Source of the DNA: a candidate division FCPU426 bacterium | GTDB taxonomy: Bacteria; Oederibacteriota; PGYV01; Palsa-1178 | Direction: 5' to 3' | DNA length: 64,000 nt | Assembly (NCBI GenBank): GCA_963840035.1 | Contig: CAWIXE010000001.1 | Location: 544,001-608,000 of the forward strand | Shown: positions 1,067 to 47,907 of the stretch, piece after piece | Layout: each line of letters starts with the position of its first letter | How positions within the stretch are numbered: position 1 is the first letter of the stretch | Program-made: the position numbers and the translations under genes | Notes under the pieces: generated by a model | The model's input: only the letters and a program-made list of their open reading frames with translations | What the model was told of the DNA's origin: nothing | Database searches by the model: none

Positions 1067-1939
1067 GGGCGATTCGTGAATCGCCCCTACAAGGGCGTCC
1101 TGTTGTTGTTGGTGTTTGGGTAATTCGTGAATTGTCACACAAATATGTTCTGCTGTTGTCATTGTAGGGGCGATTCACGAATCGCCCAAACCAAGGCCTT
1201 AAATCAGCATATGAGGGATGTTGATGACTTACAACCCAAAAATCCACCACAGGCGTTCCATACGAATAAAGGATTATGATTATTCCTCAGGGCATGCCTA
1301 TTACATCACAATCTGCACGCAGGACAGGTTATGCGTTTTAGGAGATGTTAAGGACGGGATAATAGAACTAAACTCAAACGGAAGAACCGTTAAAGACACA
1401 CTTAAAAACCTGCCAAGCCGGTATCCCGGGTCAAGTCTTGAATCCTACGTCATCATGCCAAACCACGTCCATTTTATAATACAGCTGCGTGGGGCGATTC
1501 GTGAATCGCCCCTACAAGGGATGAATGCAAGACGGCAGATGACTTTGCCTAAGACAATAGGATTTTTAAAAATGAATACAGCAAAAGCTATTAACAAAAT
1601 GCGTGGTACTTCTGGCGGGAAAGTCTGGCAGAAGGATTATTTTGAGCATATTATACGGAACGAAAAATCATATGGTGAGATTACGGAGTATATTTATAAC
1701 AATCCGTATTTATGGCATGAGGATGAGTACAATCCTAACAAGCCGGTAAAGCCGTTGGGCGATTCGTGAATCGCCCCTACAGGGGCAGACAAAGCGTGTT
1801 GTGGGTGATTTGTATACCGTTTGGGCGATTCGTGAATCGCCCCTACAAGGGCAGACAAACCGTGTTAGTGGGTGATTTGCATACCGTAGTTTTAGTTGTT
1901 GTATAAATCGAATTTGTAGGGGCGATTCACGAATCGCCC
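1067..1939. repeat. Cluster of GTAG-type REP palindromes (GTAGGGGCGATTCACGAATCGCCC) around and inside the RAYT gene
   Basis: Identical 24-mers at 1067-1090, 1164-1187 (opposite orientation), 1492-1515, 1757-1780, 1823-1846 and 1916-1939 (opposite orientation); degenerate copy at ~1118-1140. Confidence 0.93.
1218..1769 (+). CDS. REP-associated tyrosine transposase (RAYT, IS200/IS605-related Y1 HUH)
   Basis: RRSIR..YDYS, YYITICT, YVIMPNHVH (HUH), WQKDYFEHIIR, YIYNNP; flanked by REPs. Confidence 0.93.
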   Translation: MLMTYNPKIHHRRSIRIKDYDYSSGHAYYITICTQDRLCVLGDVKDGIIELNSNGRTVKDTLKNLPSRYPGSSLESYVIMPNHVHFIIQLRGAIRESPLQGMNARRQMTLPKTIGFLKMNTAKAINKMRGTSGGKVWQKDYFEHIIRNEKSYGEITEYIYNNPYLWHEDEYNPNKPVKPLGDS

Positions 1940-2004
1940 AAGGCGGGTAATTCAGCATAAAACCATGTTTTTAATCGACAATTGACAATCGTCAATCCCC
2001 AATC

Positions 2005-3215
2005 TAAAAAGTGTAAGATGAAATGCACCATCTGAGTAAATAAAAAGTCCCACCAAGCACTTGTGTTATTATGTTGTTTGCGAAGACACCATAAAAAACA
2101 CGAGGTGAATGATGGGACAAGTCAAGATTACCACAAGGGACAGGAAAAACAAGTATTTAAGTTTAAAAGAACGGTACCAGATTGAGGCTCTGCGCGATAA
2201 GAAGTGTACTGGGCGTGAGATAGCCGAACAACTTGGAAGAGACCCAAGCACGATAAATCGTGAGATAAAAAGAGGTTCTGTAATACAGACGGATTGGGAA
2301 CTCAAAGAGAGATTGGTATATAGGGCCGATCATGGACAGCTGGACTATGATGAAAAACAAAAGAACAAAGGACGCCCGTTAAAGATCGGGTTTGACCACG
2401 AACTAAGCAGGCATATAGAACGGAAGATAACGCAGGATAAGTATTCGCCGGCAGCAGTAATAGGCGAAATAATGCGAACCAAGCTGGGGTTTAAGACATA
2501 TCTGTGCATAAAGACAGTTTACAATTATATACATTCCGGTGTGTTTGCAGGTGTTGGAGAAGCAGAACTGGTATATGGAGGAAGGCGTAAAAAGAAGTAT
2601 CGGAAGGTCGGAAAAGTAAATAGAAGCAGGCTTTTCAAGAGCATAGAAGAAAGACCAAAGGCGGCAAACGAAAGAACGGAGTATGGTCACTGGGAGATAG
2701 ATGTTGTTAAGGGTATTAAATGGACAAGAGCATGTCTTCTGACAATCAGCGAACGTATGACAAGACAGGAAATAATAATTAAGATGAACTGTTGCAAGGT
2801 CGAAGAAGTGGACAAGGCGTTGACTGGACTCGAAAGGACTTATGGCGGTTTGTTTGCCAGGATATTCAAGACGATAACCGCAGACAACGGTTCGGAGTTT
2901 CTCGATTGGAGAACCCTTGAAGAGAGTAAATTAAAGCCAGGGACAAAAAGGACCATGCTATATTACGCGCATCCTTTCAGTTCTTTTGAAAGAGGAACCA
3001 ACGAGAATACAAACCGCATAATAAGGCGGTTCGTACCTAAAGGGACGGATATAGGGGAAGTGTCTGTAGAAACGGTAAAAAAGGCCCAAAATTGGATAAA
3101 CAACTATCCCAGAGGGATATTTGGATACAAAACAGCCAACGACATGATAATTCAAAATGCTACAAGAAAAATGTGTGGGATTCAGGGAGTGGTGCATTAA
3201 AACTTGCAACTTACC
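2005..3215 (+). mobile_element. IS30-family insertion sequence
   Basis: Imperfect inverted repeats TGTAAGATGAAATGCACCA (2012-2030) and TGGTGCATTAAAACTTGCA (3190-3208); 15-bp direct repeat CGTCAATCCCCAATC at 1990-2004 and 3216-3230. Confidence 0.88.
2109..3200 (+). CDS. IS30-family DDE transposase
   Basis: N-terminal HTH ([21 protein letters not shown]), [34 protein letters not shown]. Confidence 0.95.
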
Positions 3216-3864: not shown

Positions 3865-4060
3865 ATTTCTGCATGATAAAAGGTAAAAAAAATATGAGGG
3901 CAATGGAGAATCCCCATTTATAAAAAGCAAAAAATACATTTATGTGTTATTCACTTGAATAATCCGTAGAACACCCATATTAAAAATTGACAAAATACCT
4001 GTAAAATGATAAAATTAAGATGGACTAAGTGTCTCTATATTTACATTTTTGGAGGTATAT

Positions 4061-4447
4061 ATGAAAGGAATTTTCATTACAGCGGGTATTGTATTGGCGT
4101 TAGCGGGTTATTTTCTCATCGGTTCTGAAAACGTAAGCCAGATGTTGGAAAAATATTCCGTGGAAAAAATGAAGGGGACAGACCTCGAAGACGCAGCAGC
4201 TTTCAACATCAGGTACATGGATTTTACCGGAAAATACGACAGGTGCCTTGAGCTCATAAGCAAATTCAATGAAAGGTACGAGGAAAAATCAAAATATCTT
4301 CCTGAGTTTATGTTAACACAGGCAAGGATACTGGAACTGCGGCTTAAGACCGCCGCTGCCAGGGACATTTACCAGAAATATGTCGATACTTATCCGGACG
4401 CGGCGAATGTTAATGATATAAAATATAAAATCATGGAACTTAAATAA
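4061..4447 (+). CDS. Membrane-anchored small protein with TPR-like C-terminus
   Basis: N-terminal hydrophobic segment; ARDIYQKYVDTYP resembles CpoB/BamD-type TPR; RBS and TTGACA..TAAAAT promoter upstream. Confidence 0.65.
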   Translation: MKGIFITAGIVLALAGYFLIGSENVSQMLEKYSVEKMKGTDLEDAAAFNIRYMDFTGKYDRCLELISKFNERYEEKSKYLPEFMLTQARILELRLKTAAARDIYQKYVDTYPDAANVNDIKYKIMELK

Positions 4448-4468
4448 GGCTTTTAAGCAGGAGGAAAA

Positions 4469-5647
4469 ATGAAGAAAAATTTCTTATTTCCGGCATTATT
4501 AACCATTTCATTATTTATACCCGCCTTTTTATTTGCCGCGGATGAAGCTGCTGCGGCTGCCGAAGCCGCTGCCATTACCGCGTCTCCTGAAGCCACTGCT
4601 GAAGCAACTGCCGCGGCCACTGTTGAAGCTACGGTTGAACCTACTGCCGTATCAACTGTTGAAACCACAGTTGAACCGACCGCCGAAGCCACTGCTGAAG
4701 CAACTGCCGCACCTACGACAATACCCACTGTAACCGAAAAAGTTGAAGTTGATACATCATATAAAGCAGATGATGAAGGCGTGGTTATACTCTCGCCAGG
4801 GGAAACATCCATGGAAGAACTTGAAAAATATATATTAACAAAAAGAAAACCCGCGCAACAGGAAGAAACCGACAACGGCGACGTGACAATGACATTTGAA
4901 CCCGAGTCAGCCGAAGAGGAAAACGGCGGGATCATACTCATGGAAGATGAGAAAAAAGGAAAGATGGAAAGCACGGGATATGTGATGGTTGAGAGGGGCG
5001 GGTTCATATCAGACAACTTCAAGGAAGACGGAATAGTATATTCGCTTGACGGCAGGGAAATACTCGCGGCCGGCGATAACGTATACATAAAGCTCACCGT
5101 GGGTAAAGGCGTTAAAAAAGGGACTGAATTCATAGTCTATGACGACTCGGAATCGGTTATAAACCCCATGACAGACGAAAATATGGGGAAAAAGATAAAG
5201 ATCGTCGCGGTAGGGAAAGTCAGGGGCAGCGCGGACGCCGATGACAACATATGGAAGGCAAAACTCACAAAGACCTACGAACCTGCCGGAAATAATTTTA
5301 AGATTAAGATCAGGAAAGAACTCAAGGATTATTACAACAAGCTTATCACAAAGATAAAGAAAAAACCGCAGCCGCTGGAAGGGTTCATCATAAGCGTAAA
5401 CGGCGGAACCCAGGGCATCAATAACAAGGACGTTGTTTACATAGACAGGGGACTTAAGGACGGGATCGCCCCCGGGGATATCCTGACCGTGGTAAGGCTC
5501 TCCGAGGACAAGGAAACCGGCGCCATGAAAAAATATAACACCATAGGAAAAGTCATGGTCATAAATACCATGAGGAGTTCCTCGGTAGGCATCATAAGCG
5601 GCCAGACTGATGTAATAAAAGTCGGGGACCTGGTAAAGACCAAATAA
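4469..5647 (+). CDS. Exported protein with Ala/Thr/Glu-rich linker and TsaP/FlgT-C-like beta domains
   Basis: Signal peptide; GDNVYIKL..G, INPMTDENMG, VYIDRGLKDGIAPGD, IKVGDLV motifs. Confidence 0.55.
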   Translation: MKKNFLFPALLTISLFIPAFLFAADEAAAAAEAAAITASPEATAEATAAATVEATVEPTAVSTVETTVEPTAEATAEATAAPTTIPTVTEKVEVDTSYKADDEGVVILSPGETSMEELEKYILTKRKPAQQEETDNGDVTMTFEPESAEEENGGIILMEDEKKGKMESTGYVMVERGGFISDNFKEDGIVYSLDGREILAAGDNVYIKLTVGKGVKKGTEFIVYDDSESVINPMTDENMGKKIKIVAVGKVRGSADADDNIWKAKLTKTYEPAGNNFKIKIRKELKDYYNKLITKIKKKPQPLEGFIISVNGGTQGINNKDVVYIDRGLKDGIAPGDILTVVRLSEDKETGAMKKYNTIGKVMVINTMRSSSVGIISGQTDVIKVGDLVKTK

Positions 5648-5705
5648 AACAACCGCCGGGCCCTTTTCCGGCGGAAACCGCAACCACCATATAGAGAGGT
5701 AAAAA

Positions 5706-7115
5706 ATGAAATTTGGCAGCAAGAAAAGCGTGCTCATTTTGTGCGGAATATTCGTAACACTTCTTGCCGTAAGTTTTACCAGGATAAACAGCAGTTATAT
5801 TTTCCTGGCAGCGGGCCTGGCCGCCTCGCTCATTTCCTTTAACGGAGGGTGGGTTAACGGGGTTTTCATGTCGCTGCTTTTTAATTTTACTTTTTACTCG
5901 CTCCACACCGCTATGGGCGTCCAGAGCATGGTTTTAAATATAGCGGTTTTTTCAGCTCTTTCTGTGCTTGCGGACAGGCTTAAGATAGGAAGCAATGCTC
6001 CGGTTCAGAAGGATTCAAATCCCGAGGAAAAAGCTTTTGTAAACAAAGTAATAAATTCGTTCATGCTTGGCCATGACATGGTACGCGAGATAAAAAAAGG
6101 GATAACAAGGAGCGAACTGCTCGCTCTATTCGCGCGCAATGTATCAAACTTGACAGGCGCCGACCAGGTGCTGGTTTATACCGGTGAAAACGCCCCGGAA
6201 GGAAAGTTAAAGCTCACGCTCTCCGCGGGAAAATACCAGGAGAGGGTCATAGAGCCTGAAGCTGAAATTGAGAGTGTACTCTGTTTGTCGGAGAAAAACC
6301 TTCCCGCAAATGAAGCCGGATTCATAAAGAGCGTCAGCGACGGGTACGCCATCATAATGCCGGTCAATGAAAAGGGAAAAGCCGGGGACATCGCTGTGCT
6401 TTACAAGGGAAATGAGTTCTCATACAGCGACATATACATAGCCGAATTTTTCAGCGCGCAGATATTTGTCATAATGGAAAAGCAGGAACTCCTTAAAAAG
6501 ATGTCGGGAAATTACGAGCGCATCATAGAAGCCCTCGCCCTGGCCATAGATACCAAGGACCACGAGACGCACGGCCACTCGCTGGCCACCATGAAGTACG
6601 CCGTAAAAATCGCGGAAAAAATGAACCTGCCTGATGAGGAAAGGGAAATGATAAAATACGCCTCCCTCCTGCATGACATAGGAAAGATAAACATAAGCAG
6701 CGCCATACTTAACAAGCCCGACAAGCTTACGGCTGAGGAATTTGACATCATAAAAAAGCACCCGGAAGAGGGCGTGCACATTTTGGACAGGATGGACATA
6801 TTCGGGGAGATACTCCCGCTTGTTATGCACCATCACGAGCATTTTGACGGCAAAGGCTACCCAAAGAAGCTAAAGGGGGACAGCATCCCGCTGGGGTCCA
6901 GAATTTGCTCGATTGCGGACGCGTACTCGGTGATGGTGGCGGACCGCCCCTACAGGAAAGCGCGCACAAGGGATGAGGCCATTAATGAGCTGAAACGCTG
7001 CTCCGGGACGCAGTTTGACAGGCAGATAGTGGATGTCTTCCTCGGGATAATAAAGGAAGAAAACACGCAGGAAGCGGCATTACATAATATTACCGGCGCA
7101 GGGCCGGTAAACTGA
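5706..7115 (+). CDS. Membrane-bound HD-GYP cyclic-dinucleotide phosphodiesterase with GAF-like middle region
   Basis: N-terminal TM helices; THGHS, LHDIGK, HHEHFDGKGYP, ADAY, RPYR, GTQFD. Confidence 0.9.
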   Translation: MKFGSKKSVLILCGIFVTLLAVSFTRINSSYIFLAAGLAASLISFNGGWVNGVFMSLLFNFTFYSLHTAMGVQSMVLNIAVFSALSVLADRLKIGSNAPVQKDSNPEEKAFVNKVINSFMLGHDMVREIKKGITRSELLALFARNVSNLTGADQVLVYTGENAPEGKLKLTLSAGKYQERVIEPEAEIESVLCLSEKNLPANEAGFIKSVSDGYAIIMPVNEKGKAGDIAVLYKGNEFSYSDIYIAEFFSAQIFVIMEKQELLKKMSGNYERIIEALALAIDTKDHETHGHSLATMKYAVKIAEKMNLPDEEREMIKYASLLHDIGKINISSAILNKPDKLTAEEFDIIKKHPEEGVHILDRMDIFGEILPLVMHHHEHFDGKGYPKKLKGDSIPLGSRICSIADAYSVMVADRPYRKARTRDEAINELKRCSGTQFDRQIVDVFLGIIKEENTQEAALHNITGAGPVN

Positions 7116-7918
7116 TGGATGAGTTAACCGCGTTTAATAATATTAAGGCGCTGATATTGAAGGAAAAATTCCTAGATGTCACGCAGTACAAGGAAAATTA
7201 CCTGAAACGAAGGCTGGCGGTGCGGATGAGGGCGCTTAACGCCCACACGTACACCGACTACCTCGCGGTGATGGAAAAAAACAAGAACGAACTGAACATA
7301 CTTTTGGATAAGCTGACGATAAACGTAACGCAGTTCTTCAGGGACCCAGAAGTCTTCGTGGAACTTGAGAATGTCATACTGCCGGAACTTTTAGCCGGCG
7401 GAAAGACCGACTTAAGGGTGTGGAGCGCCGGATGTTCCTCAGGCGAGGAGCCTTACTCGATTGCCATTTCCATAGAGGAGACAGCGGAGCGGCTCGGTTT
7501 GAAAAACCTGAGATATGAGATTTATGCCACGGACTTAGACGATGAAATACTGCGCAGGGCCCTTGAAGGCAAGTACGAAGGCAGGACCCTGGACAACATA
7601 GCGGAGTCACGTAAGAGAAAATATTTTGATTTTGACGGAAAAAAATATTCCGTTACGCAGAGGATACGCAAAAACATCCTGTTTTTTAAGCATAACCTGA
7701 TGGAACCGTACAAAAAGGATTTTTTTAACCTGGTTTTCTGCAGGAATGTCATCATTTATTTTACGAGGGAACTGCAAAAAACGGTGTTACAGCACTATTA
7801 TGATTCCATGAAGGAGGGCGCGGTACTGTACCTGGGAAAGACCGAGACCATGCTCATGGAACACAGGAATAATTTTGAATGTATAAATATTAAGGAAAGG
7901 ATATTCAGGAAAATATAA
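7115..7918 (+). CDS. cheR: Chemoreceptor methyltransferase
   Basis: LTINVTQFFRD, WSAGCSSGEEPYS, FCRNVIIYF. Confidence 0.96.
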   Translation: MDELTAFNNIKALILKEKFLDVTQYKENYLKRRLAVRMRALNAHTYTDYLAVMEKNKNELNILLDKLTINVTQFFRDPEVFVELENVILPELLAGGKTDLRVWSAGCSSGEEPYSIAISIEETAERLGLKNLRYEIYATDLDDEILRRALEGKYEGRTLDNIAESRKRKYFDFDGKKYSVTQRIRKNILFFKHNLMEPYKKDFFNLVFCRNVIIYFTRELQKTVLQHYYDSMKEGAVLYLGKTETMLMEHRNNFECINIKERIFRKI

Positions 7919-9084
7919 TGGACACAGTACAGGACCACATAAATCTCGGGCTGGCCTTTGCCATGAGCAAGCGCTATGACCAGGCCATAAAAGAATTTGA
8001 AAAGGCCCTCAGCATAAACGCTGACGACGCAGAGGTACTAAAGCACCTGGCTAACGCCTACGTTTATAAAGGCGAATATGACCAGGCCATAAACTCATAT
8101 GAAAAAGCCCTCAAGATCAATCCCATGAACGCCGAGGTAATAATGAAACTCGGAAAATTATACGCGAACATGGCCAATTTTGACAAGGCTCTGGTGCAGT
8201 ATAAAAAAGGGCTTGAGATCAACTCTACAGACTCAGCCTTAAGGCACGCGCTGGCAGACCTGTACGTGAAGATGGGAAAAAACGCCGAGGCCGAGGCCGA
8301 GTACAGGAAGATGATAGAAAAGGAACCGGCTAATATGGAGCTTATTTTCAAGCTCGGCTATATATTTGAATCCGAGAAAAAATACGCCGAAGCAGCGGTG
8401 GAATACGAGAAAGTCGTAAAGGCAAACCCTAAAAGCCCCGGCATTAATTCCATGCTTGGAAATGTTTACAGGGAATTAAAGCAGTTTGACAAGGCCATAG
8501 AGCATTATGACAAGGCCGTTAAGATAAATCCCAGGGATACCGCTGTGGCTTTTAACCTGGGGGTCCTGTATTTTGAAAGCGGGCAGAACGAAAAGGCCAT
8601 AACGCAGCTGGAGATAGCCAAGAAAAACAAGTTTAAAAATTCGGAAATATTCATAATCCTTGGGGAAGTGTACTCCAGGCTCGGCAGAAAAAAAGAAGCG
8701 CTTGAGGAATATAAAAAGGTAGCCGAGCTCGGGAGCGCGGACGCGGAAACGCATAAAGCCCTCGGGTTCATATACATGGAAGAGGACCAGCTCGACGACG
8801 CCCTCGCCGAATACAAAAAGGCCATGGAAACAAAATCAGACGACCCCGCGATATATGAGAATATGGGGCAGATATACTATAAAAAAATAATGTATAAGGA
8901 AGCGAAGGAATATTTCTCAAAGGCCATAGAGGCCGGCAGGGAAAGCGCGGACATGTTCTACAAGCTGGGGAACATATATATGAAGGAATCCAACCCGGAA
9001 AAGGCCAAGGAAAACTGGAACAAGTCGCTTAAGATATACCCGGAGAACGAGATAATAAAAAAGAATCTGAAACTGCTCGGCTGA
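7918..9084 (+). CDS. Tetratricopeptide-repeat protein
   Basis: About 11 tandem 34-aa TPR units. Confidence 0.9.
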   Translation: MDTVQDHINLGLAFAMSKRYDQAIKEFEKALSINADDAEVLKHLANAYVYKGEYDQAINSYEKALKINPMNAEVIMKLGKLYANMANFDKALVQYKKGLEINSTDSALRHALADLYVKMGKNAEAEAEYRKMIEKEPANMELIFKLGYIFESEKKYAEAAVEYEKVVKANPKSPGINSMLGNVYRELKQFDKAIEHYDKAVKINPRDTAVAFNLGVLYFESGQNEKAITQLEIAKKNKFKNSEIFIILGEVYSRLGRKKEALEEYKKVAELGSADAETHKALGFIYMEEDQLDDALAEYKKAMETKSDDPAIYENMGQIYYKKIMYKEAKEYFSKAIEAGRESADMFYKLGNIYMKESNPEKAKENWNKSLKIYPENEIIKKNLKLLG

Positions 9085-9120
9085 GTTTAAAGTCAGGTTT
9101 TAAATTGCAGGGGGAAATGA

Positions 9121-9720
9121 ATGGAACTTTATAAAAAACAGGACAAGAGTTTGGGCGAACTCCTAATACAGGCGGGATTTATAACAAACGAGCAGCTGAA
9201 AGAATGCCTGCTGGAACAGCACTCGACAGGCGAGCCCCTGGGGAAAATCCTCATATCAAAGCATTATGTCAGGGAAGAGAACATCATAAACGTCTTAAAG
9301 GGTATGCTCGTGGTGGTGGTCGAGGTTAATAATGAAAAATTCGGAATAGAGATCATATACGCCAGGGAAATTATAAAATACAAAAAAATATCCGCCCTTC
9401 CGAACCTGCCGGACTACATCCTGGGCATGATGTCGCTTCGGGAGGATGTCATCCCGGTAGTCAGCCTTAATAAGAAAATTTTCAACAGGGAAGACGCCAT
9501 AACAGAAAACTCAAAGATAATAATTATAGACGGCAAAAAGGACCTGATGGGTGTTTTAGTGGATGAAGTCATAAACGTAAAGAATTACCAGTCGTCGGAT
9601 TTTGCCAATATCACAAAATACACCTTTACCATAGACAGAAAATACATCGCCGGGCTGATAAAGGACGGCGACGGGGTAATAACCCTAATAAAGCCGGAAA
9701 TCCTTTTTGAAGGCAGGTAA
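9121..9720 (+). CDS. CheW-like protein with N-terminal MshEN-like domain
   Basis: LGELLIQAGFITNEQLKECLLEQ..PLGKILI followed by CheW fold (FGIEI..AREII, LPNLPDYILGMMSLREDVIPVV, GVLVDEV). Confidence 0.82.
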   Translation: MELYKKQDKSLGELLIQAGFITNEQLKECLLEQHSTGEPLGKILISKHYVREENIINVLKGMLVVVVEVNNEKFGIEIIYAREIIKYKKISALPNLPDYILGMMSLREDVIPVVSLNKKIFNREDAITENSKIIIIDGKKDLMGVLVDEVINVKNYQSSDFANITKYTFTIDRKYIAGLIKDGDGVITLIKPEILFEGR

Positions 9721-9722
9721 GC

Positions 9723-20040: not shown

Positions 20041-20126
20041 AAGGCGTGCGTAATTTAAAATACGCACGGACGGCGCACTGCGGGCGCACGAATTTTCAGG
20101 CACGTATCACGTTATAGGGAGAAATA

Positions 20127-22250
20127 ATGGCCGTTTTCGCTTTAGACATAGGAACCCGCAAGGTAGCCGGCATATTAGGCGAGCTTCGCGGAGAGAGAGT
20201 GCACATCATAGATGCCGTTTTAATGGAGCATGAAAAACGCGCCATGATAGACGGGCAGATACACTCCATAGAGGGCGTCACAGACATTGTGCGCAAAATA
20301 AAGAACGAGCTTGAAATGCGCAACGGCATTATAATTGAAAAGGTCACAACAGCGCTCGCGGGCAGGAGCCTTCATACGGAAAAGACGGATGTTATCATAG
20401 AAAAAAAGGGCGATGTCACGAAGGAAGACCTGGCTTACCTGGAGATGTTAAGCGTAAAGCAGGCAAATGAAAAGCTGACCGGCCAGAAAAAACTTGATTA
20501 TTACTGCGTGGGTTATTCCACGGTTTCATTCTCCGTCGACGGCGAGGTAATGAAGTCCCCGCTGCAGCAGCTGGCAAAAAGGTCGCTTGGCATTTCCACC
20601 ATAGTTACATTCCTTCCCAAACCGGTATTTGACTCCATGGTCACGGTCTTAAACAACTGCGGCCTGGTCATAGACGCGATAACGCTTGAGCCAATAGCGG
20701 CGTTATCAGTCACAATCCCGGAGGACATGAGGCTTTTAAACCTCGCGCTTGTGGACGTGGGCGCGGGAACATCGGACATCGCGATAACTGACAAGGGTAA
20801 AATAACAGCGTATGGCATGATACCAAAAGCAGGGGACGAGATAACTGAAGCGATCTGCCATGAATTCCTGGTGGATTTTAACACGGCGGAAAAAGTAAAG
20901 AGGAAAGCTGAAAGCCCGGAAGAAGCCGGGGCTAAAGACATATTTAATAACCCTGTGATTGTTACCGCGGAAAAATTCCGCGAGGCGGTATTTGCAAAGA
21001 CAGAAGAAGTGGCCAAAGATGTTGCAGACGGAATTTTAATGTTAAACGGAAAACAGCCGCAGGCGGTTGTCATGGTAGGCGGCGGAAGTTCGCTTATGCT
21101 TTTACGCGAGCGCGTGGCCGCGAATTTAAGCCTGCCGGTGGGCAGGGTCGGCGCGAGGACCCCGGAGACCATTACAAACATAGAAAACCTGCCTGACGTG
21201 TTAAAGGGCACTGAAGGAATAACCCCCCTTGGCATACTCGAGACCGCGCTTTTCAAAAGGGGCATAGGATTTGTGGATGTCACTGTAAACGGCGAAAAAG
21301 AATACGTCATAAACCTCGACCAGGAGATAAAAGTCGTGGACGTGCTGGCGTCGCGCGGCATGGAAATGAAGAGGCTTTACGGAAAACCCGGAAACTCGCT
21401 TACCTTTACATTTAACGGAGAGCTTAAGATACTGCGCGGGAGCCACGGCGAACACGCGAAAATATATGTCAACAACGACGAGAGACAGCTTGAAGACAGG
21501 GTATATAAAGGCGACGCCATATTCATAACGTCGGCAAAAGACGGCGCTTCAGCCTCGGCCATAATAAGGGACATCATAGGCGAACACTACGTCACAGTAG
21601 TTGAGATAAACGGCAAGAAACACGAGATAGCGCCGCTGGTCCTGCGCGAAGGCAGGGAAGTCACAATAGACGAGCCTTTAACGGACAGGGCGGATATTAC
21701 AGCGGAGAGGATAGACATGGCCGCGGACGTGCTTGCAAGGGCCGGCTATGAGATAAAGGCGTCGAACGAGCGCGACATCATAATAACAGTCAACGGCGAA
21801 CCGCAGGTTTTAAAGCAGAGGAACTACCAGCTGAAGGTAAACGGCGTAGAAGTCGCGGCCGATTATAAGCTGCGCAACATGGACAGGGTGGAATACAAGG
21901 ACACGCCGGCGTATTACAGGGTAAAAGACGTGCTGAAAACCTCGCGCAAGCACAAGATAAGCGTCATCATAAACGGCAAGCCTTTTGAGATGGAACAGGA
22001 AAATTCCGGAATATTCATGAACGGAAAGAAAGTCTCGGAGGACGAGTTCCTCATTAACGGCGCCTCCATAGACATAAAATCAAACGAAGAAAAAATGATA
22101 CTATCCTCGGTATTTAAGTTCTACCCCATAGACACGCAGAGAATCAAAGGAAGGCTCCTGGAGCTGAAGGTTAACGGCGAAAAAGCCGGCTACACCACCC
22201 AGATAACCGAAGGCGCAAACATAGAAATAAACTTCACAGACGCGGTATAA
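20127..22250 (+). CDS. FtsA/PilM-like actin-fold ATPase with long repetitive C-terminal extension
   Basis: ALDIGTRKV, LEPIAA, LVDVGAGTSD, VMVGGGS; C-terminal repeats of (V/I)NG(E/K).. Confidence 0.8.
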   Translation: MAVFALDIGTRKVAGILGELRGERVHIIDAVLMEHEKRAMIDGQIHSIEGVTDIVRKIKNELEMRNGIIIEKVTTALAGRSLHTEKTDVIIEKKGDVTKEDLAYLEMLSVKQANEKLTGQKKLDYYCVGYSTVSFSVDGEVMKSPLQQLAKRSLGISTIVTFLPKPVFDSMVTVLNNCGLVIDAITLEPIAALSVTIPEDMRLLNLALVDVGAGTSDIAITDKGKITAYGMIPKAGDEITEAICHEFLVDFNTAEKVKRKAESPEEAGAKDIFNNPVIVTAEKFREAVFAKTEEVAKDVADGILMLNGKQPQAVVMVGGGSSLMLLRERVAANLSLPVGRVGARTPETITNIENLPDVLKGTEGITPLGILETALFKRGIGFVDVTVNGEKEYVINLDQEIKVVDVLASRGMEMKRLYGKPGNSLTFTFNGELKILRGSHGEHAKIYVNNDERQLEDRVYKGDAIFITSAKDGASASAIIRDIIGEHYVTVVEINGKKHEIAPLVLREGREVTIDEPLTDRADITAERIDMAADVLARAGYEIKASNERDIIITVNGEPQVLKQRNYQLKVNGVEVAADYKLRNMDRVEYKDTPAYYRVKDVLKTSRKHKISVIINGKPFEMEQENSGIFMNGKKVSEDEFLINGASIDIKSNEEKMILSSVFKFYPIDTQRIKGRLLELKVNGEKAGYTTQITEGANIEINFTDAV

Positions 22251-24735: not shown

Positions 24736-24851
24736 GACAGGCAAGTAATTATTTATTGACTAATCATTTGTTTGTGTTTATATTATCTGCTACAAGGTAG
24801 GGTTTGCAATTGGGAATTGCAAATTACAAATACAAACATATAGGGGGCTAT

Positions 24852-25958
24852 ATGGATTCACGTACTGCTTTAATTGCTTTGAACATGGTGCCGGGGATTG
24901 GTTCTGTAAAACTCAACAGGCTAATCGGCGCTTTCGGGTCGCCTGAGGACGTATTTAAGGCATGCGCGGAAGATTTGGCGCGCGTGGAAGGCATCGGCAC
25001 TGAGATAATAAGGCACATCATTAATTTTCCGGATATTTTCAACATAGATAAGGAACTAAAGGAATGCGAAGAGAAATCCATAAAGATCATAACCATATAC
25101 GACGACGCCTACCCAGTTCTTTTAAAAAAGATATTTGACCCGCCGCCCGTGCTTTATACCGCAGGCGCTTTTGAGAGATGGCCGGACCATTCCATGAACT
25201 TAGGCATTGTCGGCACCAGGATGGCTTCAGATTATGGCGAGCGCGCTTTAAAAAAAATCATAGAAGAGATACGCGCCTCAAAACTGCGCTTTAACACTGT
25301 CTCGGGCATGGCGCGGGGAATAGACGTTATCGCGCACATGGAGTCATTAAAGTGCGGCATTTATACGGCGGCTGTCCTGGGGTTCGGGCTTAACAAGCTT
25401 TATCCCTTTGACAAACATTACATTGCAGGGCATATAATAAAGAACGGCTGCCTTGTGTCGGAGTTCCCGCTGAACATGCTTCCTTTAAAGCAGAACTTCC
25501 CCCGCAGGAACAGGGTCATATCGGGCTTGTCCGACGCGGTGCTTGTCGTGGAGGCGGGCGAAAGGAGCGGCGCTCTTATTACTTCGGACTACGCGCTTGA
25601 GCAGGGCAGGGACGTTTTTGCGGTGCCGGGGTCCATATTCGCGGACAAATGCATGGGCACGAACTGGCTGATAAAGCAGGGGGCAAAACCCGTCACATCC
25701 TTTTTTGACATTGCCGAGGAGTATGAACTGCTGGGAAAGCCGGGACACAAGCAGATGGAACTGAAGCTGACCCTGCCGGATATGAACGAAAATGAGAGGA
25801 AAATATACGATATTTTGACTTTTGAAAAAAAACATATTGACAATATAGCAATTGAAAGTAATATAGAGGTTATTAAATTGGGCGCCACACTCACCATAAT
25901 GGAGATGAAAGGCGCGGTCAAGCAGTTAAGCGGCAAGAACTTCATAAAAGCCGTATAA
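24852..25958 (+). CDS. dprA: DNA-processing protein DprA
   Basis: IVGTR, VSGMARGID, FPRRNRVISGLS, SGALIT..ALEQGRDVFAVPG. Confidence 0.96.
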   Translation: MDSRTALIALNMVPGIGSVKLNRLIGAFGSPEDVFKACAEDLARVEGIGTEIIRHIINFPDIFNIDKELKECEEKSIKIITIYDDAYPVLLKKIFDPPPVLYTAGAFERWPDHSMNLGIVGTRMASDYGERALKKIIEEIRASKLRFNTVSGMARGIDVIAHMESLKCGIYTAAVLGFGLNKLYPFDKHYIAGHIIKNGCLVSEFPLNMLPLKQNFPRRNRVISGLSDAVLVVEAGERSGALITSDYALEQGRDVFAVPGSIFADKCMGTNWLIKQGAKPVTSFFDIAEEYELLGKPGHKQMELKLTLPDMNENERKIYDILTFEKKHIDNIAIESNIEVIKLGATLTIMEMKGAVKQLSGKNFIKAV

Positions 25959-25976
25959 ACCAAAGCGGAGAGACAA

Positions 25977-28469
25977 GTGGAAGAAAACAAACCTGAAGAA
26001 AAAAAGCCTGAGACGATATCCACGGAAACATCAACGCCCGCGGACGAGCAAGAGCAGACACCAGGGGATGTAACCACTGAAGCAGGGACGCCGGAAACCG
26101 AGACAGGCGCGGCGCCCAAGAAAAAAGCAAAGGCAAAGGCGAAGAAAGCCAAAACAAAAAAACCAAAGGGCGGGAAGATAATCCTCGTTGAGTCGCCCAC
26201 CAAGGTCCACACCATACAAAAATACGTCAAAGGAAAATACCATGTCATGGCCACCAAGGGCCACGTCAAGGACCTTCCAAAATCAAAGCTCGGCATTGAC
26301 ATAGAGCATAACTTCGAACCGTACTACATAGTTTTAAAGGACAAGAGGAAGATACTCTCCGAGATAAAAAAGGAAGTCAAGAAAGTCGACGAGGTATACC
26401 TGGCTACCGACCCTGACCGCGAGGGAGAAGCCATATGCTGGCACGTAGCCGAAGAAGTCAAGAAATTAGGCGGGGATAAGAAGATATTCAGGGTCATGTT
26501 CAATGAAATCACAAAGACTGCCGTATTAAAAGCGCTGGAAAACCCGCGCGAGATAAACATGAACCTGGTTAACGCCCAGCAGGCAAGAAGGGTTTTGGAC
26601 AGGCTCGTGGGATACAAGATAAGCCCGCTGTTATGGAAAGCCATCAGGAAAGGCCTCTCAGCCGGACGCGTCCAGTCGGTCGCGCTAAAGCTCATAGTTG
26701 AAAGGCAGGCGGAGATAGACAAATTCAACCCTGTGGAATACTGGTCCATACGCGCCATACTGGAAAACAGCGGCAAGATGGCCATTGACTCTAAATTAAC
26801 CGAGAAAAACGGCGAAAAGATAGACTTAAAAAATGAGGCGGACAGCGGCGCCATAGTGGAAGAGTTAAAGAACGCGGAATATATAATAAGCGAAGTGGTA
26901 AAAAAGGAACGGCGCAGGAAAGCGCTCCCTCCTTTCATCACTTCAACCCTCCAGCAGGACTCGGCGCGCAAGTACCATTTCACGGCGCAAAAGACCATGA
27001 TGATAGCCCAGCAGTTATACGAGGGCGTGACTATCGCGGGAGAGGGCCAGGTCGGTTTGATAACATACATGAGGACCGACTCGCTGCGTGTATCCGAAGA
27101 AGCGCAGAAAGAAGCAGTGGCGTACATAGAATCCAGCCTCGGAAAAGAATTCCTTCCAGAGACCCCCAACGTTTACAAATCAAGAAAGTCGGCGCAGGAC
27201 GCGCATGAAGCCATAAGGCCTTCTTCAGTGGCGCGCCACCCCAACGACATAAAAGAAAACCTCGACAACGACCAGTTCAAGGTTTACTCGTTAATATGGA
27301 AAAGGTTCGTCGCCTCGCAGATGTCGCCGGCAGTGTTTGACGATACGCGCGTAAAGATAGCGGCCGGGCCATACACATTCCAGGCAAACGGCTCCATACA
27401 GAAATTTGAAGGCTTCTTAAAGGTATATGAAGTCATAACAGACGCTGAGAAACCCGCTGAGAACAGCAATGGCGCCGGCAATGACGAGGACAAACCCGAA
27501 GACAGGCGCCTGCCGGAAGTAACGCAGGGGGAAAAGCTTGACTTAAAGGAACTCCTGCCCGAACAGCACTTTACACAGCCGCCTCCGGCATTCTCGGACG
27601 CCACGCTCGTTAAAGCGCTTGAAGAAAAGGACATCGGAAGGCCGTCCACATACGCGCCGATTATAACGACGCTGGTCGCGCGCAAGTATATTACAAGGGA
27701 CAGGGGAAAGTTCGAGCCCACAGAACTGGGCACGCTTGTTTCCGACATACTGCTTAAACATTTTTCCACCATTATAAATGAAGAGTTCACTGCCAAAATG
27801 GAAACAGACCTGGACAAGGTCGAGGAAGGTTCCATAGAATGGCACGACCTCATGAGGACTTTTTACACGACCTTTGATGTGCTTTTAAAGGCGGCAGAGC
27901 CTTTCATGCTGGACATGCGCAAGGATATCGAAGGCGACACCGGCGAGATATGCGAAAAGTGCGGGGGAAAGATGATCATAAAGTGGGGCAGGCACGGCAA
28001 GTTCATGTCCTGCGAAAAATACCCCGAGTGCAAAAACGCAAAGCCGCTCGGCGAGGACGGCAAGAAAAAGGAAGAGGTGCAGCTAAACGAGAACTGCCCG
28101 ACATGCGGCGCGCCGCTTATCATAAAGCACGGGCCATACGGAGAGTTCATAGCGTGCTCAAAGTACCCGGAGTGCAAATACACCAAGCAGATAGTAAAAA
28201 AGGTCGGCGTCAACTGCCCGGACTGCGGCGGGGACATCATAGAGAGGACCTTCAAGCGCTTCAGGAAATTCTACGGCTGCTCGAACTACCCCACATGCAA
28301 ATTCATGGTATGGGACAAGCCGCTGGCGGAAAAGTGCCCGAAGTGCGGGGCTGACTACCTCCTCGAAAAATGGAAAAAGACAGGGTCCATAGTATACTGC
28401 AAAAAATGCGACTACAAAGCTGACAAGGTTCAGGCGGAGGAAACACCTCCTACCCCGAAAAATGAGTAA
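25977..28469 (+). CDS. topA: DNA topoisomerase I
   Basis: VESPTK, ATDPDREGE, SAGRVQS, ITYMRTDS, C-terminal Zn ribbons. Confidence 0.97.
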   Translation: MEENKPEEKKPETISTETSTPADEQEQTPGDVTTEAGTPETETGAAPKKKAKAKAKKAKTKKPKGGKIILVESPTKVHTIQKYVKGKYHVMATKGHVKDLPKSKLGIDIEHNFEPYYIVLKDKRKILSEIKKEVKKVDEVYLATDPDREGEAICWHVAEEVKKLGGDKKIFRVMFNEITKTAVLKALENPREINMNLVNAQQARRVLDRLVGYKISPLLWKAIRKGLSAGRVQSVALKLIVERQAEIDKFNPVEYWSIRAILENSGKMAIDSKLTEKNGEKIDLKNEADSGAIVEELKNAEYIISEVVKKERRRKALPPFITSTLQQDSARKYHFTAQKTMMIAQQLYEGVTIAGEGQVGLITYMRTDSLRVSEEAQKEAVAYIESSLGKEFLPETPNVYKSRKSAQDAHEAIRPSSVARHPNDIKENLDNDQFKVYSLIWKRFVASQMSPAVFDDTRVKIAAGPYTFQANGSIQKFEGFLKVYEVITDAEKPAENSNGAGNDEDKPEDRRLPEVTQGEKLDLKELLPEQHFTQPPPAFSDATLVKALEEKDIGRPSTYAPIITTLVARKYITRDRGKFEPTELGTLVSDILLKHFSTIINEEFTAKMETDLDKVEEGSIEWHDLMRTFYTTFDVLLKAAEPFMLDMRKDIEGDTGEICEKCGGKMIIKWGRHGKFMSCEKYPECKNAKPLGEDGKKKEEVQLNENCPTCGAPLIIKHGPYGEFIACSKYPECKYTKQIVKKVGVNCPDCGGDIIERTFKRFRKFYGCSNYPTCKFMVWDKPLAEKCPKCGADYLLEKWKKTGSIVYCKKCDYKADKVQAEETPPTPKNE

Positions 28470-29592: not shown

Positions 29593-32500
29593 TTGTCTTT
29601 TAAAGCATTATCAGTAAAGGCATTTAAAAGAGCTGGTTTGATATTTGCCATGATTTTTATTATGGCTATATTTACTAATGCGGCAACAATAATATTACCT
29701 GCTACCGGTCTAATGTCCGGGGAAACCACGGATCCGAACTGGCAAAACCCCGCCGGCATAAGCGCGCCGGATTATCAATACGCTTCAGCCACAGCCAAGG
29801 ACCAGAAGCTTTATACAGCTTTTAACCAGATGCCATTGAACGGCGTGATAATTAACTCCATAACACTGCACGTCATGCACGTAACCGAGGGGACAATAAC
29901 CCCCGGGGATACAATGCAATTAAATTATTCTTTTGATAACGGCTCCAGCTGGCATTCTGCAACAACACTTCTGTCAAACATCATGGAAAATTCCGCTGTC
30001 GGCATTGACATATCTGAATTTGACCCGTGTGATGAAACCAGGGTTAATTCATTCGGGCTTGACATATCGCCTGTCAGCGATACTTTTGACCGTTTTATGA
30101 TTGATTATACATATCTGCTTGTCGATTACACCGTGCCTTCGCAGACAGTCACTTTTACCCCGAGTTTTACAGCCACCCATACAGACACTCCGTCGGCTAC
30201 GGAAACAACAACCGAAACCGCGACACAGACAGCTACGGAAACAGCGACACAGACAGCAACGGAAACGGAGACCTGCACAATAACACAAACCATTACGAAA
30301 ACACAGACAGAAACAGCGACGCAGACAATCACTCAGACCGCGACTGTTACTTATACATCCACGCCTGAGGTGCAGGCATACATTGAGCCGAAATCCGCGG
30401 TCATGGGGGATACGGTAATATATACATACCGCGTGATTGCGCGGGGCAACGGGGCCATAAATAGCCTGCTTATCACGGCGCCGGGAGTTGCCATGACAGG
30501 CGTAGTGAGCTCAAGGGGAGGGGCCATATCCTATCCGGGAGTAAACGTACAGGTTACATACGGCACCGCATGGAACACATTAAGCGACCCGAATTTTGAC
30601 GTGATAACATTTACAGGAGTAATAACAACTGCAGGCACAAAGACATTTACCGGCCTTATAAACGGCGGATTTTTATCCACGGTTCCGTCAGGGTATACAA
30701 ACCAGGTCAGCGTGTCATCCCCAACATTTACAGTAACCTGTACTGTAACACCCACAGACACGCAGACTATAACCGCCACAGATACGCAGACTTTGACGCA
30801 GACACAGACGCAAACTATAACGCAGACGGCAACAGAGACCGCGACTCAAAGCGTCACTCAGACAAAAACACAGACAGCGACACAGACCGCAACAGAAACC
30901 GTGACGCAGACAGATACGAAAACCGCGACGCAGACACTTACGCAGACCATAACGCAGACAGACACGCCGACCATGACGCAAACAGCCACGCCCAGCGTGA
31001 CGGTGACGTATACATCCACTCCGGAGGCGCAGGCATATATACAGCCTGAAACGGCAATAATGGGGGATACGGTAACATATACATACCGGGTAATTGCGCG
31101 GGGCAACGGGGCCATAAACAGCCTGCTCATCATGGCTCCGGATGTCACAATGGCCGGCGCAGTGAGCGCGAACGGCGGCGTCATAACACAGCCCGGCGGG
31201 AACATACAGGTAAATTACGGGACCGCGTGGAATTCATCAAGCGACCCGAATTTTGACGTGATAACATTTACGGGGGTAATAACAGTAACAGGCGCAAAGA
31301 CATTTACAGGGCTGATAAACGGCGGGTATTCATGCACGGTACCGGCCGGGTATACAAATCAGGTAAGTGTGGCGTCGCCGACATTTACTGCAACAAGGAC
31401 GGCAACGCAGACTGTAACACAGACAATAACACAAACCCCTACGCAGACATGCACACAAACAATTACACAGACCGCGACTCAGACCAACACTCAGACCGCG
31501 ACACAAACCGCGACACAGACGATAACGGAGACTGCGACGCAGACCATAACAGCCACAGTAACACAAACCGCGACGCAGACCGGGACACAGACCATAACGG
31601 AAACCGCGACGCAGACCATAACAAGTACAGCAACACAGTCAGCCACGCAGACTGTAACGAAGACTGCAACCGGAACCGTGACACAGACAGCAACGCAGAC
31701 AATATCACAGACAGCCACGCAGTCCATAACGGAAACCATCACCCAGACCGCGACGCAGACTGTTACGGGAACAGTGACGCAGACAATCACGCAGACAGCG
31801 ACGCAAACTGCCTCTCCCACATGCACACCGACATCATACCTTTCAGTTTCCATAGGCCCGGCAAATCCGGCGTCAGCAAATTACATGTTTGACGAGGCAA
31901 ACGCCGTCTCCATGCAGATAAGGCTTTCGGCAAATAACGGGAATGTTGGGGTTGGAAGAATAGCATTTGTATCATCAGGGTCGCTCGTGGATTATACTGA
32001 GATAACAACTGCAAGGCTTTATATTGACAGCGGTACTACGCCGGGAGTGCTGGACGGGTCCGACGTACAGGTGGGAGATAATGAGCCGTTTGTCATGTTC
32101 GTTGTCGGGGATGGCAGGGTGGTTTTTGAAAAATCACCGCTTCTTTTCGGGGTAAGCCCGGGCACGCCAGTGGACCTTATACTTGTGGTAAGCCTGAATT
32201 CAATCGGCGGAAAAAACTTCAGGGACGCGACTACGGCCGCGGACATAAACGCTTTTGACCAGGCTTTCCTGCCGGTGGTTGTATCCGGTTCGGCAACAGG
32301 CAATTTCCATAATGTCATAGCACCGACCATGACAGTAACCCAGACATTTACGCCGAGCGCCACACAGACTGTGACGCAGACGGCTACGCAGACCATAACG
32401 GAGATATTTACAAAGTCAGTAACACAAACGGTGACGCCGACAGGAACGTCAACAATAACTCAGACTATTACCGAGACCGTAACGCAGACAGCCACTCAGA

Positions 32501-36865: not shown

Positions 36866-37203
36866 GGGGGCGACCGGATTCGACAGGTCTCGCGTAGATG
36901 TAAGGAGCATGCCAGTGCCCATGTCACTGTATAAACGTGGAACACGTAACTGCAAACGATTACGCTTTAGCAGCATAAGCTGCACCTCTTCTACTTCTTT
37001 TGCCTGCGGGATATAGAAGGGGACCAACAGCAGGCCGCTCAGTTAAGCGTTCTCCTTGCTTAGCTGCTAAGACTAAGGGAGAGTAGCGCCGGGTGATTGT
37101 GTCCGGTCAAGCAAACGGCGCGAAACCAAATACCGGAACAAGCATGTAGCCGCCTTTATCGAAACAGGTCTGGACGTGGGTTCAAGTCCCACCGCCTCCA
37201 CCA
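36866..37203 (+). ncRNA. ssrA: tmRNA; tag peptide ANDYALAA* (36952-36978)
   Basis: 5' GGGGGCGACCGGATTCGAC, tag GCA AAC GAT TAC GCT TTA GCA GCA TAA, 3' GTGGGTTCAAGTCCCACCGCCTCCACCA; close to smpB. Confidence 0.96.
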
Positions 37204-38694: not shown

Positions 38695-38850
38695 GACACA
38701 CCACCGTAAAAAGATTTGTTGTGGACTCTAACGCGTGAGTGATTTTAAGTCAAGAAATACCAATTTAGACCAAATTAATTAGTTTTTGTCTATTTTTGTT
38801 TTTGCGTAAATAATTGTTGACAAGCGGTATTTCCATGATATATTTGCGCT

Positions 38851-39068
38851 GGCAGAAAGAAATTAAGTCGCGCTTTGTTTGTGGGGTTCGCAAGCCCACA
38901 GTATGGGCGACACCCAGCCACGCGGGATATGCGCTCCGGGCTGATTAACTCATGAAGTCAGTAGACGGATTCACGAGTTTAAATCAGTGCAAGGAGCAGC
39001 GCAAATGCCCAGAAATCCGAACATCAATAACCCCTGCGTTATAGGTCTGTCCGTAATTACTGTTTGCC
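38851..39068 (+). ncRNA. Candidate structured RNA (~218 nt) of unknown class
   Basis: TTGACA (38817)..TATATT promoter; 5' GGCAGAAAGAAATTA pairs with 3' TAATTACTGTTTGCC; several nested internal stems. Confidence 0.5.
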
Positions 39069-39222
39069 TGCTCACTCATCTTATGTTCTGCAACGTGAAA
39101 CCAATCTTAAAATATTTTTAATTTAAGGTCATAAATCTGCTTATGTTTTTATATTTACAGAAGAGATAGGAACGGAAAGGACAGGAGTTCGAAGGCATGT
39201 CGTGCCGAAAAAGGAGTAGTAA

Positions 39223-40611: not shown

Positions 40612-40654
40612 AAGAAATGTACTTTGATTAACTCTACGGAGAAAGGAGTCAGTT

Positions 40655-40849
40655 ATGCGCAATAGAACGGAATGGAAAGACCCGGATGAGGTTATGTTCG
40701 GGGAGTACATAGACCCGGACGAACGTAAGTTCGAGGTCTGGCACGGCCCAGAGGAAGCCGCGGTGGCCCACTGGATTAAAACGATAGAAGAACGCAGGAA
40801 AACACCCGGATACCAGAATCTACAAGGAGGAAAAAAATGGGAAGAGTAA
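40655..40849 (+). CDS. Small hypothetical protein
   Basis: AAGGAG RBS; overlaps the next gene's start. Confidence 0.55.
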   Translation: MRNRTEWKDPDEVMFGEYIDPDERKFEVWHGPEEAAVAHWIKTIEERRKTPGYQNLQGGKKWEE

Positions 40850-41382: not shown

Positions 41383-41436
41383 TAAATGCTTTAATCAAGA
41401 CAGGTTGAGAGCAAACACTCTTGCCTATACTAAAAC

Positions 41437-41895: not shown

Positions 41896-41946
41896 TTTAG
41901 TTGTGCTGACGATTAAGTGCGGAGGGATATATTCCCCAATAATCAC

Positions 41947-42132: not shown

Positions 42133-42298
42133 TTTTTAACTCCTTGAATTTTGTCGGTCTTTACTGATACCGCAATAGACCGTTTGCGTCAATATCTTTC
42201 CCTTTCCTGCCCACGTACGACCCCGTTGTTACGAGCGGAATCGGGCCTATTTTGAGCCATGTCGCAGAGCCCCCTGACCTTACCCACCCCTGATTAAA

Positions 42299-47904: not shown

Positions 47905-47907
47905 AAA

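Follow-up and report, generated by a model that had tools for sequence, protein, structure and literature searches.

The window examined here, a stretch of 64,000 nucleotides (positions 544001-608000 of contig C1, CAWIXE010000001.1), belongs to a genome (G000) of 3.46 Mb in three contigs, 98% complete, which by the names of its homologues sits in Ca. Goldbacteria. Eighteen genes on the same strand of the window, at positions 4049-22250 and with intergenic gaps of -23 to 168 bp, form a chemosensory cluster (Table 1) that, as judged from sequence, has the gene content of an F1 system and a Dif-like ancestry. Pfam and NCBIfam confirmed CheR, two CheYs, two CheCs, CheD, a receptor (methyl-accepting chemotaxis protein, MCP), CheW, CheB and CheA, together with an HD_5 protein, two proteins composed entirely of tetratricopeptide repeats (TPR388 and TPR734), a P-II protein and an FtsA/PilM_2 ATPase. 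The core order is cheR...mcp-W-Y-B-A-C, with cheR, cheY, cheC and cheD upstream of mcp, and the catalytic motifs are intact in the HD-GYP protein, CheA, CheB, both CheCs, CheD and the actin-fold ATPase. Every gene call of a first-pass annotation of this DNA holds, with position and plus strand as claimed, but the unit most likely begins one gene earlier than that annotation had it, with a small TPR gene preceded by a sigma-70-type site that is the likely promoter of the operon. The dprA-topA genes downstream are probably outside the unit and are listed for context.

Table 1. The chemosensory cluster and flanking features, by position in the window.
Feature	Positions	Strand	Remarks
Sigma-70-type promoter-like site	3987..4015	+	11/12 consensus, extended TG; consensus match only
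Small TPR protein, one N-terminal hydrophobic helix	4049..4447 (ATG 4061)	+	First gene of the unit
TsaP-like exported protein	4469..5647	+	Profile match; N-terminal hydrophobic signal, Ala/Thr/Glu linker, TsaP C-terminal domains
HD-GYP protein, membrane-anchored	5706..7115	+	HD, HHE and GYP motifs intact
CheR methyltransferase	7115..7918	+	Family match
All-TPR protein, 388 residues (TPR388)	7918..9084	+	Adjoins cheR in nearly all loci
MshEN-CheW fusion	9121..9720	+	NCBIfam NF053729
All-TPR protein, 734 residues (TPR734)	9723..11927	+	Predicted PII partner, weak support
Dedicated PII paralogue	11947..12285	+	Nucleotide residues invariant, T-loop divergent
CheY1	12413..12778	+	Family match
CheC1 phosphatase	12780..13403	+	Both D/S-x3-E-x2-N motifs
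CheD deamidase	13409..13888	+	GSC motif and His
DifA-like receptor (MCP)	13902..15164	+	Two transmembrane helices, 44H length, four methylation-type motifs
CheW	15168..15662	+	Family match
CheY2	15640..16002	+	Family match
CheB (REC and methylesterase)	16009..17073	+	Family match
CheA (Hpt, P2, dimer, HATPase, CheW)	17225..19267	+	Only CheA found in the genome
CheC2, DifG position	19305..19958	+	Ribosome-binding site favours ATG at 19335
FtsA/PilM-like actin-fold ATPase, 707 residues	20127..22250	+	Phosphate and adenosine motifs intact
dprA-topA, conserved downstream neighbours	24804..28469	+	Names read from sequences alone

Conservation of the cluster was followed through a panel of 60 genomes of the phylum (Goldbacteria/FCPU426/Firestonebacteria), all with a completeness of 90% or more. 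CheC matches were obtained in 52 of these and, with three matches from another cluster subtracted, the cluster is present in 49/60. Among the 20 loci from the same taxonomic order as the window, 16 have TPR734 and PII after MshEN-CheW; the remaining four comprise one truncated where its contig ends, one from which both TPR734 and PII have been lost, and two in which the cluster breaks after MshEN-CheW. In other classes of the phylum cheR-TPR388-MshEN-CheW-TPR734-PII-cheY-cheC-cheD are found together at approximately 40% identity, and the receptor or cheA has often been relocated while the cheR-to-cheD block stays joined. The cluster is more than a chance association, since different classes of the phylum share the order of its genes. 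The claim that the PII, TPR and MshEN-CheW genes are syntenic with the che genes was borne out, all three being co-present in 35/48 loci (34 without one duplicate). The HD-GYP gene did not fare as well as a built-in part: it precedes cheR in 14/19 loci of this taxonomic order, no locus from another class has it there, and it is an add-on at the level of the order. In families f17 and f23 a degenerate GGDEF protein with an RxxD site lies behind cheC2 instead of an HD-GYP gene (8 loci, one from a duplicate genome), and it provides a second, independent cyclic di-GMP (c-di-GMP) add-on. The degenerate GGDEF protein (L239:3438-4535 and orthologues) is itself likely to be a c-di-GMP receptor. In a GTDB scan, full-length TPR734 orthologues (at least 39% identity) came from records named for the phylum or from unnamed or loosely named metagenome-assembled genomes (MAGs), weaker matches were generic TPR proteins, of which the two inspected had no che neighbours, and a search for related loci with the MshEN-CheW protein as sole query gave no match.

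These comparisons bear on the view that the system is an ordinary F1 system and that the TPR proteins, PII, TsaP, the HD-GYP protein and the FtsA-like ATPase are mere operon neighbours with unrelated jobs. Such a view would accommodate the loss or replacement of HD-GYP, the FtsA-like ATPase, TPR734 and MshEN-CheW in some lineages, the splitting of the cluster after MshEN-CheW in one family, and the fact that the FtsA-like family is also common in Bacillota and Thermotogota. We nevertheless consider it very improbable: across classes the cheR-to-cheD block stays joined at approximately 40% identity, including in loci from which the receptor and cheA have been relocated, MshEN is physically fused to CheW, and the genome has two Amt-linked PII genes besides this one.

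The three CheC matches that were dropped, in G025, G042 and G043, belong to a different W-Y-A-MCP-C cluster. In G043, G025 and G042 (loci L230, L231 and L233), genomes without FliM, this is a compact cheW-cheY-short cheA-mcp-cheC cluster, which in two of the three stands beside long proteins with FliG-like domains; its CheAs lie on the Dif-like branch described below, as sister to the deltaproteobacterial Dif-like group.

The receptor has hydrophobic windows at residues 12-30 and 42-60; the 11 residues between these fixed 19-residue windows are at the edge of the range of approximately 3-10 residues for Dif-like receptors, and we counted the loop as Dif-like. From hairpin tip to C-terminus there are 154 residues, or 22 heptads, which is the 44H length, a call made on this length proxy rather than on a class hidden Markov model (HMM). 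The first-pass annotation was correct that the receptor has no ligand domain, but the protein is not cytoplasmic, as its two hydrophobic helices anchor it in the membrane; with a receptor that spans the membrane the suggestion of purely cytoplasmic input is unsupported, and the genome has two further receptors with periplasmic domains. For reference we used 251 genomes of the phylum of one deltaproteobacterial MAG, eight of which had a CheA with E <1e-105; six of these loci were Dif-like and fully covered, one was cut by a contig end and one was of a different class. All six have the order cheR-mcp-W-Y-(B fragment)-A-C-(D) and ligand-less receptors of 418-428 residues, with the tip-to-end count of 154 in four and 158 in the other two.

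In an IQ-TREE phylogeny of 36 rows, 16 CheAs of the phylum, seven Dif-like CheAs (classed by gene order) and three others formed one branch with support of 100/97. A constraint grouping the phylum CheAs with three Bacillota flagellar CheAs was rejected (approximately unbiased test, p-AU 0.003), although this grouping was chosen after the first tree had been viewed and the Bacillota sample is small (n=3). A FastTree phylogeny of 183 rows, with 147 further representatives and with three partial CheAs left out, again placed the phylum and Dif-like CheAs together (support 93), within a wider group (support 100); Omnitrophota, Geothermincolia, a Bacillota-labelled MAG protein and archaea are among the few members of this group that have names. 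Receptor architecture, gene order and the CheA tree therefore agree on the Dif-likeness proposed at first pass, and the contrary outcome named there, a CheA in a standard flagellar class, did not occur with respect to Bacillota. The proxies used for class (CheC/CheD, P2, and best family and plasmid matches) all point to F1, and the best family scores were to CheA_Halo, CheY_Halo, CheC_Thtogales and CheD_Thtga, all under their cut-offs. Systems of the TFP class (Pil-Chp type) have a CheA-CheY hybrid kinase with several Hpt domains; the CheA here has a single Hpt and no receiver domain. The presence of CheR, CheB and CheD sets the system apart from the CheR-independent Myxococcus form of Dif.

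The MshEN part of the fusion matched NCBIfam NF053729 with 61.5 bits (cut-off 38), had no Pfam match, and aligned with the solved c-di-GMP-binding domains of Thermus PilF (the closest) and V. cholerae MshE. Residues G12, L30, Q33 and G41 are present in 22/22 sequences and L11, L40 and L59 are L or I/M in 22/22; in V. cholerae MshE, mutation of the positions kept here costs 9- to 72-fold in binding or abolishes it (PMC5013675). Counting in the other direction, the equivalents of R9 and Q61 are lost in 22/22 (R9 to S/T, Q61 to a hydrophobic residue), and the Q61A change in V. cholerae MshE costs approximately 12-fold (PMC5013675). On balance, MshEN-CheW is likely to bind c-di-GMP, though probably less tightly than V. 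cholerae MshE does. Its CheW part retains E83 in 21/22 and R107 in 22/22, a pair that we take to form the conserved salt bridge of CheW. Elsewhere in the genome MshEN motifs occur three times, on ATPases of pilus or type II secretion system type.

The PII of the window is a third paralogue, separate from the two Amt-linked PII genes and 38% identical to one of them. Residues T29, G35, G37, G84, R85, G87, D88, G89, K90, R101 and R103, which serve in ATP/ADP binding, are invariant in 35/35 sequences. The 2-oxoglutarate and T-loop positions are less conserved (Q39 in 27/35, K58 in 12/35 with R in 23, R47 in 2/35 and Y51 in 19/35), the window PII keeping Q39 and K58 but having E47 and V51, and the T-loop varies by lineage. 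Of the inputs suggested for this PII, ATP and ADP thus have better conserved binding residues than 2-oxoglutarate.

For the proposal that the TPR proteins act as a scaffold for PII, complex prediction with a PII trimer and TPR734 (residues 18-681) gave a score of 0.41 (the highest of three controls scored 0.00), with at least 58% of contacts shared between runs and a partner predicted local distance difference test (pLDDT) of at least 77. In the benchmark the mark was reached by 116/157 solved and 2/215 mismatched pairs, but at 0.60 or below only 18 solved pairs and both mismatches are found, so 0.41 is a weak score of a grade that is wrong oftener than right unless the pair is likely beforehand. 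PII and TPR734 are such a pair, because their genes adjoin, one genome has lost both together, and in the family without TPR734 the T-loops are two to three residues shorter (two sequences). The scaffold proposal is thereby carried forward for TPR734 as a weak prediction of a complex.

A type IV pilus link, also suggested at first pass, is supported by several observations. The exported protein encoded near the start of the unit gave profile matches to the TsaP of Myxococcus (3jc8, E 1e-15) and of Pseudomonas (6ve2, E 2e-8) and is the genome's only strong TsaP-profile match; no Pfam match was detected in it, nor the LysM that TsaP has at its N-terminus, and its single-sequence fold (pLDDT 35.5) was too low in confidence for use. 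In families f11, f17 and f23 a PilT-TPR ATPase gene lies upstream of the small TPR and TsaP genes (12 distinct loci), and in 6 loci of families f15/f18 the pilMNOP genes have cheA-cheC-ftsA-like-dprA further downstream, with the strand unchanged. The genome carries type IVa pilus genes, and PilM is found in 59/60 genomes of the panel. From these gene arrangements, and from the retention of the system in relatives with no FlhA or FliG match (below), we favour a system coupled to the pilus.

Two other regions of contig C2 touch on pili. Directly after pilQ-aroCKB, at C2:91864-93550 (L244:3864-5550), are a TPR-roadblock gene and a stand-alone roadblock gene. At C2:1222700-1231800 (L067:4730-13808) an MshEN-bearing PilB-type ATPase, a DnaK paralogue, a DnaJ-TPR protein, a HAMP protein, a PQQ-repeat protein, PilZ and a ligand-less receptor are encoded in one run, the DnaK paralogue of which brings to mind the Hsp70 StkA that stands between pili and Dif in Myxococcus (PMC4319316).

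A pilus link is also compatible with a strict Myxococcus Dif arrangement, in which pili would be input only, the output would be matrix, adhesin or c-di-GMP via a regulator encoded elsewhere, and the CheYs would be mainly phosphate sinks. The precedent is M. xanthus, in which PilB and StkA precede DifA/C/E in the pathway, DifD serves as a sink and exopolysaccharide (EPS) is the output (PMC5544727, PMC4319316), and the run just described, with its MshEN-bearing ATPase, DnaK paralogue, DnaJ-TPR protein and ligand-less receptor, would suit it, as would an NAD-dependent epimerase gene after cheB in one f18 locus scanned. We regard this arrangement as improbable, as CheB, CheR, CheD and two CheCs point to a fast, adapting system, unlike the CheR-independent Dif of Myxococcus (PMC2577667), and neither a regulator for such an output nor an EPS locus was identified in this analysis.

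The first-pass annotation had noted that there are no flagellar genes in the window, which is true for the window, but the genome has them elsewhere, at C2:1040000-1071000 (L077, L065) and C2:396167-404577 (L106). The set comprises the MS/C-ring, export gate, MotAB, rod, P/L ring, hook (632 residues), FlgK (720 residues), FliA and FlgM, with a FliK of 769 residues; flgH is in two open reading frames (ORFs; 116 and 81 residues, C2:398782-399395), a possible frameshift or assembly error. Flagellin, FlgL, FliD, FliS, FliW and CsrA were not found in this genome, and profiles of eight flagellins and three FlgLs of relatives, run against all six frames for divergent homologs, gave best E values of 3.8 and 0.17, respectively. 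Long ORFs after flgK in family f17 were considered as filament candidates and rejected, as they match FliK. Scans for sigma-28-type sites returned flgM, fliK2, a 75-residue ORF and proteins with hydrophobic leaders, and no filament candidate; the sites before the 75-residue ORF and two of the hydrophobic-leader proteins (701 and 1036 residues) are at C1:494996, C1:753250 and C3:91186. The Goldbacteria paper (PMC7031533) mentions flagellar genes in a legend only, as far as its accessible text goes; a 2026 preprint (PMC13277936) describes the loss of flagellar genes in FCPU426 as high, and in its Table S1 the FliC, FliD, FliS and FlgL entries are empty for one Goldbacteria genome, apparently without comment.

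Across the panel, 40/60 genomes have the ancestral FliM, which is 74-90% identical across the order, and 36 of these 40 gave no flagellin-family match. Such matches were obtained in 10/60 genomes, four of which have the ancestral FliM and also a second FliM. A second complete flagellar cluster, with flagellin, is present at L086-L088 (G003:C12) and L104-L105 (G034:C2), and its FliM is without the N-terminal CheY-binding-type peptide, in which it resembles non-chemotactic lateral systems. A filament-less rotor found throughout the phylum is possible.

An alternative to pilus coupling is therefore flagellar chemotaxis, with phosphorylated CheY (CheY-P) switching the FliM/FliN C-ring of a rotor gated by the PII and c-di-GMP module, the rotor being hook-only or having an unrecognised filament because FlgL, flagellin and FliD were not found. 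The completeness of the basal set through to FlgK, FliA and FlgM, the conservation of the ancestral FliM, which implies a motor under strong constraint, and the F1-type family scores are all in keeping with this alternative, which we rate as a serious but unlikely one. In the 60 genomes, 35 have the system and ancestral FliM, 14 the system only, five FliM only and six neither. Families f15/f18 account for 12 of the 14 system-only genomes, the system being retained in 12/12 of their genomes and ancestral FliM in none; FlhA and FliG gave no match in 5/5 f15/f18 genomes tested (91-100% complete, two at 100%), all of which keep the system. The other two system-only genomes, G023 and G059, may reflect assembly gaps. 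That five genomes have ancestral FliM and no system, that second-type FliMs match only from query residue 34-50 on and, in the two inspected directly, are without the motif, and that the CheA tree rejects the Bacillota flagellar grouping also speak against a flagellar role, as does the sigma-70-type site of the che operon, for which scans gave no sigma-28-type match. Neither linkage to nor co-retention with a complete flagellum, as in Bacillota flagellar F1 systems, was observed.

Several observations weigh against pilus coupling with lineage-specific tuning. The window cluster holds the genome's only CheA, a second ligand-less receptor is encoded just upstream of flgB, and in 35 of its 49 genomes the system is accompanied by the ancestral FliM. 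The N-terminus of this FliM reads LSDGELDALL or LSQGEIDALM, the former in the genome of the window; we take the reference CheY-binding motif on FliM to be LSQxEIDALL, and a motif of this type was present in 19/20 FliM starts inspected. Co-occurrence with pili does not discriminate, PilM being in 10/11 genomes without the system. In f15/f18, aroC, a methyltransferase and other genes separate the pil genes from cheA, and these families are probably one lineage rather than 12 events, so that the evidence for the pilus link comprises few independent events. MglA had no match in the genome with one deltaproteobacterial query. Three loci lack MshEN-CheW, and one family (f11) lacks TPR734. The CheA trees are without Myxococcus DifE, named Geobacter proteins and Thermotoga, and by raw score the best plasmid-collection matches were Bacillota flagellar CheAs.

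With both sides considered, we give roughly an even chance to a Dif-like F1 system coupled to the type IVa pilus machine, with lineage-specific tuning of its kinase by ATP/ADP (through PII-TPR734) and by c-di-GMP (through MshEN-CheW). We infer that, in such a system, the ligand-less two-helix receptor would respond to a partner in the membrane or the pilus, in the manner of DifA, and would be adapted by CheR, CheB and CheD, with TPR388 as the detached TPR part of CheR. MshEN-CheW would join the array beside CheW, where c-di-GMP binding, probably weaker than that of MshE, may alter CheA activity, and the same messenger would act on the three MshEN-bearing pilus-type ATPases of the genome; PII would switch TPR734 by adenylate state. 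CheY-P, its signal terminated by the two CheC phosphatases, would then set pilus activity or surface attachment, and in Goldbacteria one CheY may also reach the FliM of the flagellin-less motor, dual pilus and motor use being plausible there.

A bolder version of this proposal is that the array has its own energy and c-di-GMP inputs, with CheA gated directly by a dedicated, TPR-scaffolded PII trimer and by a CheW that binds c-di-GMP, which would be the first PII input to a chemosensory kinase, and that it serves type IV pili phylum-wide and in Goldbacteria also a motor ending at an enlarged hook and FlgK without a flagellin filament; we hold this version to be doubtful. To our knowledge, control of chemosensory kinases normally runs through receptors alone. 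The phylum-conserved che operon encodes two proteins, a PII paralogue and MshEN-CheW, that could be purified as candidates for exerting metabolic and second-messenger control on an array directly, and the co-encoded pilus parts (TsaP and PilT-TPR) make the driver of ligand-less DifA-type receptors testable. The flagellin-less motor is a separate lead.

Elsewhere in the window, two transposase-like ORFs (1218-3200) upstream of the cluster separate proS from a cold-shock gene; the loci of relatives lack them there. As read from the sequence, a low-GC island (37156-49800) carries serine-recombinase-like, DNA cytosine methyltransferase-like and adjoining nuclease-like ORFs and transposase-like ORFs, and secreted Thr-rich repeat proteins of 1858 and 1122 residues are encoded at 29593-35169 and 51377-54745, the latter with glycoside-hydrolase-like and carbohydrate-binding-like regions.

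No description of this gene combination was found in open-access full text, subscription journals being largely outside the search. The individual parts have several known counterparts. MshEN occurs inside CheA in Aeromonas and as (MshEN)2-CheX in Geobacter lovleyi (Wang et al. 2016, PMC5013675), and a stand-alone MshEN-CheW was not found among the architectures in the accessible text and supplements of that work; the fusion here also differs in missing R9 and Q61. In Azospirillum brasilense PII affects c-di-GMP and aerotaxis, its output reaching motility via c-di-GMP enzymes, but that PII is the general nitrogen regulator, binding a diguanylate cyclase and a phosphodiesterase, whereas the PII here is a dedicated paralogue inside a che operon (PMC7646526). 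CheR-TPR fusions in alternative-function clusters likewise tie TPRs to CheR (PMC3447774), the TPR protein here being a separate gene.

With regard to whole systems, Bacillota flagellar F1 systems share CheC/CheD adaptation and a CheA with P2, but have flhFG-cheB-cheA-cheW-cheC-cheD-sigD inside a flagellar operon, whereas the cluster here is unlinked to one. Archaeal CheAs (two of the ten looked up were named, Methanolobus and Pyrococcus) form the next layer out in the tree; a preprint on F1 and archaella (10.64898/2026.05.11.724246) has no mention of Goldbacteria or Myxococcus in its accessible part. M. xanthus Dif is alike in its two-transmembrane 44H receptor (DifA, 413 residues), its P2-bearing kinase without a receiver (DifE), its order difA...difC-difD-difE and its type IV pilus tie (PMC3945109, PMC5544727); it differs in having no CheD, no CheR in the dif cluster and an EPS output (PMC2577667, PMC3945109), DifE itself being outside our comparison. 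The Geobacter-type Dif-like clusters (Tran et al. 2008, PMC2577667) are similar in having a 44H receptor with two transmembrane helices and a tiny periplasmic loop, and CheA, CheW, CheY, CheC, CheD and CheR. The deltaproteobacterial Dif-like loci have the same gene order and CheAs on the same branch, and compared with them only the cluster here has a full CheB, additional copies of CheY and CheC, the MshEN-CheW fusion, the long proteins TPR388 and TPR734, a PII of its own, TsaP, HD-GYP and the FtsA-like ATPase; none of these additions lies inside the seven Dif-like loci inspected, two of which have an HD-GYP gene further downstream. The cluster thus represents a new variant among Dif-like F1 systems, and extends the Dif-like branch beyond the deltaproteobacteria.

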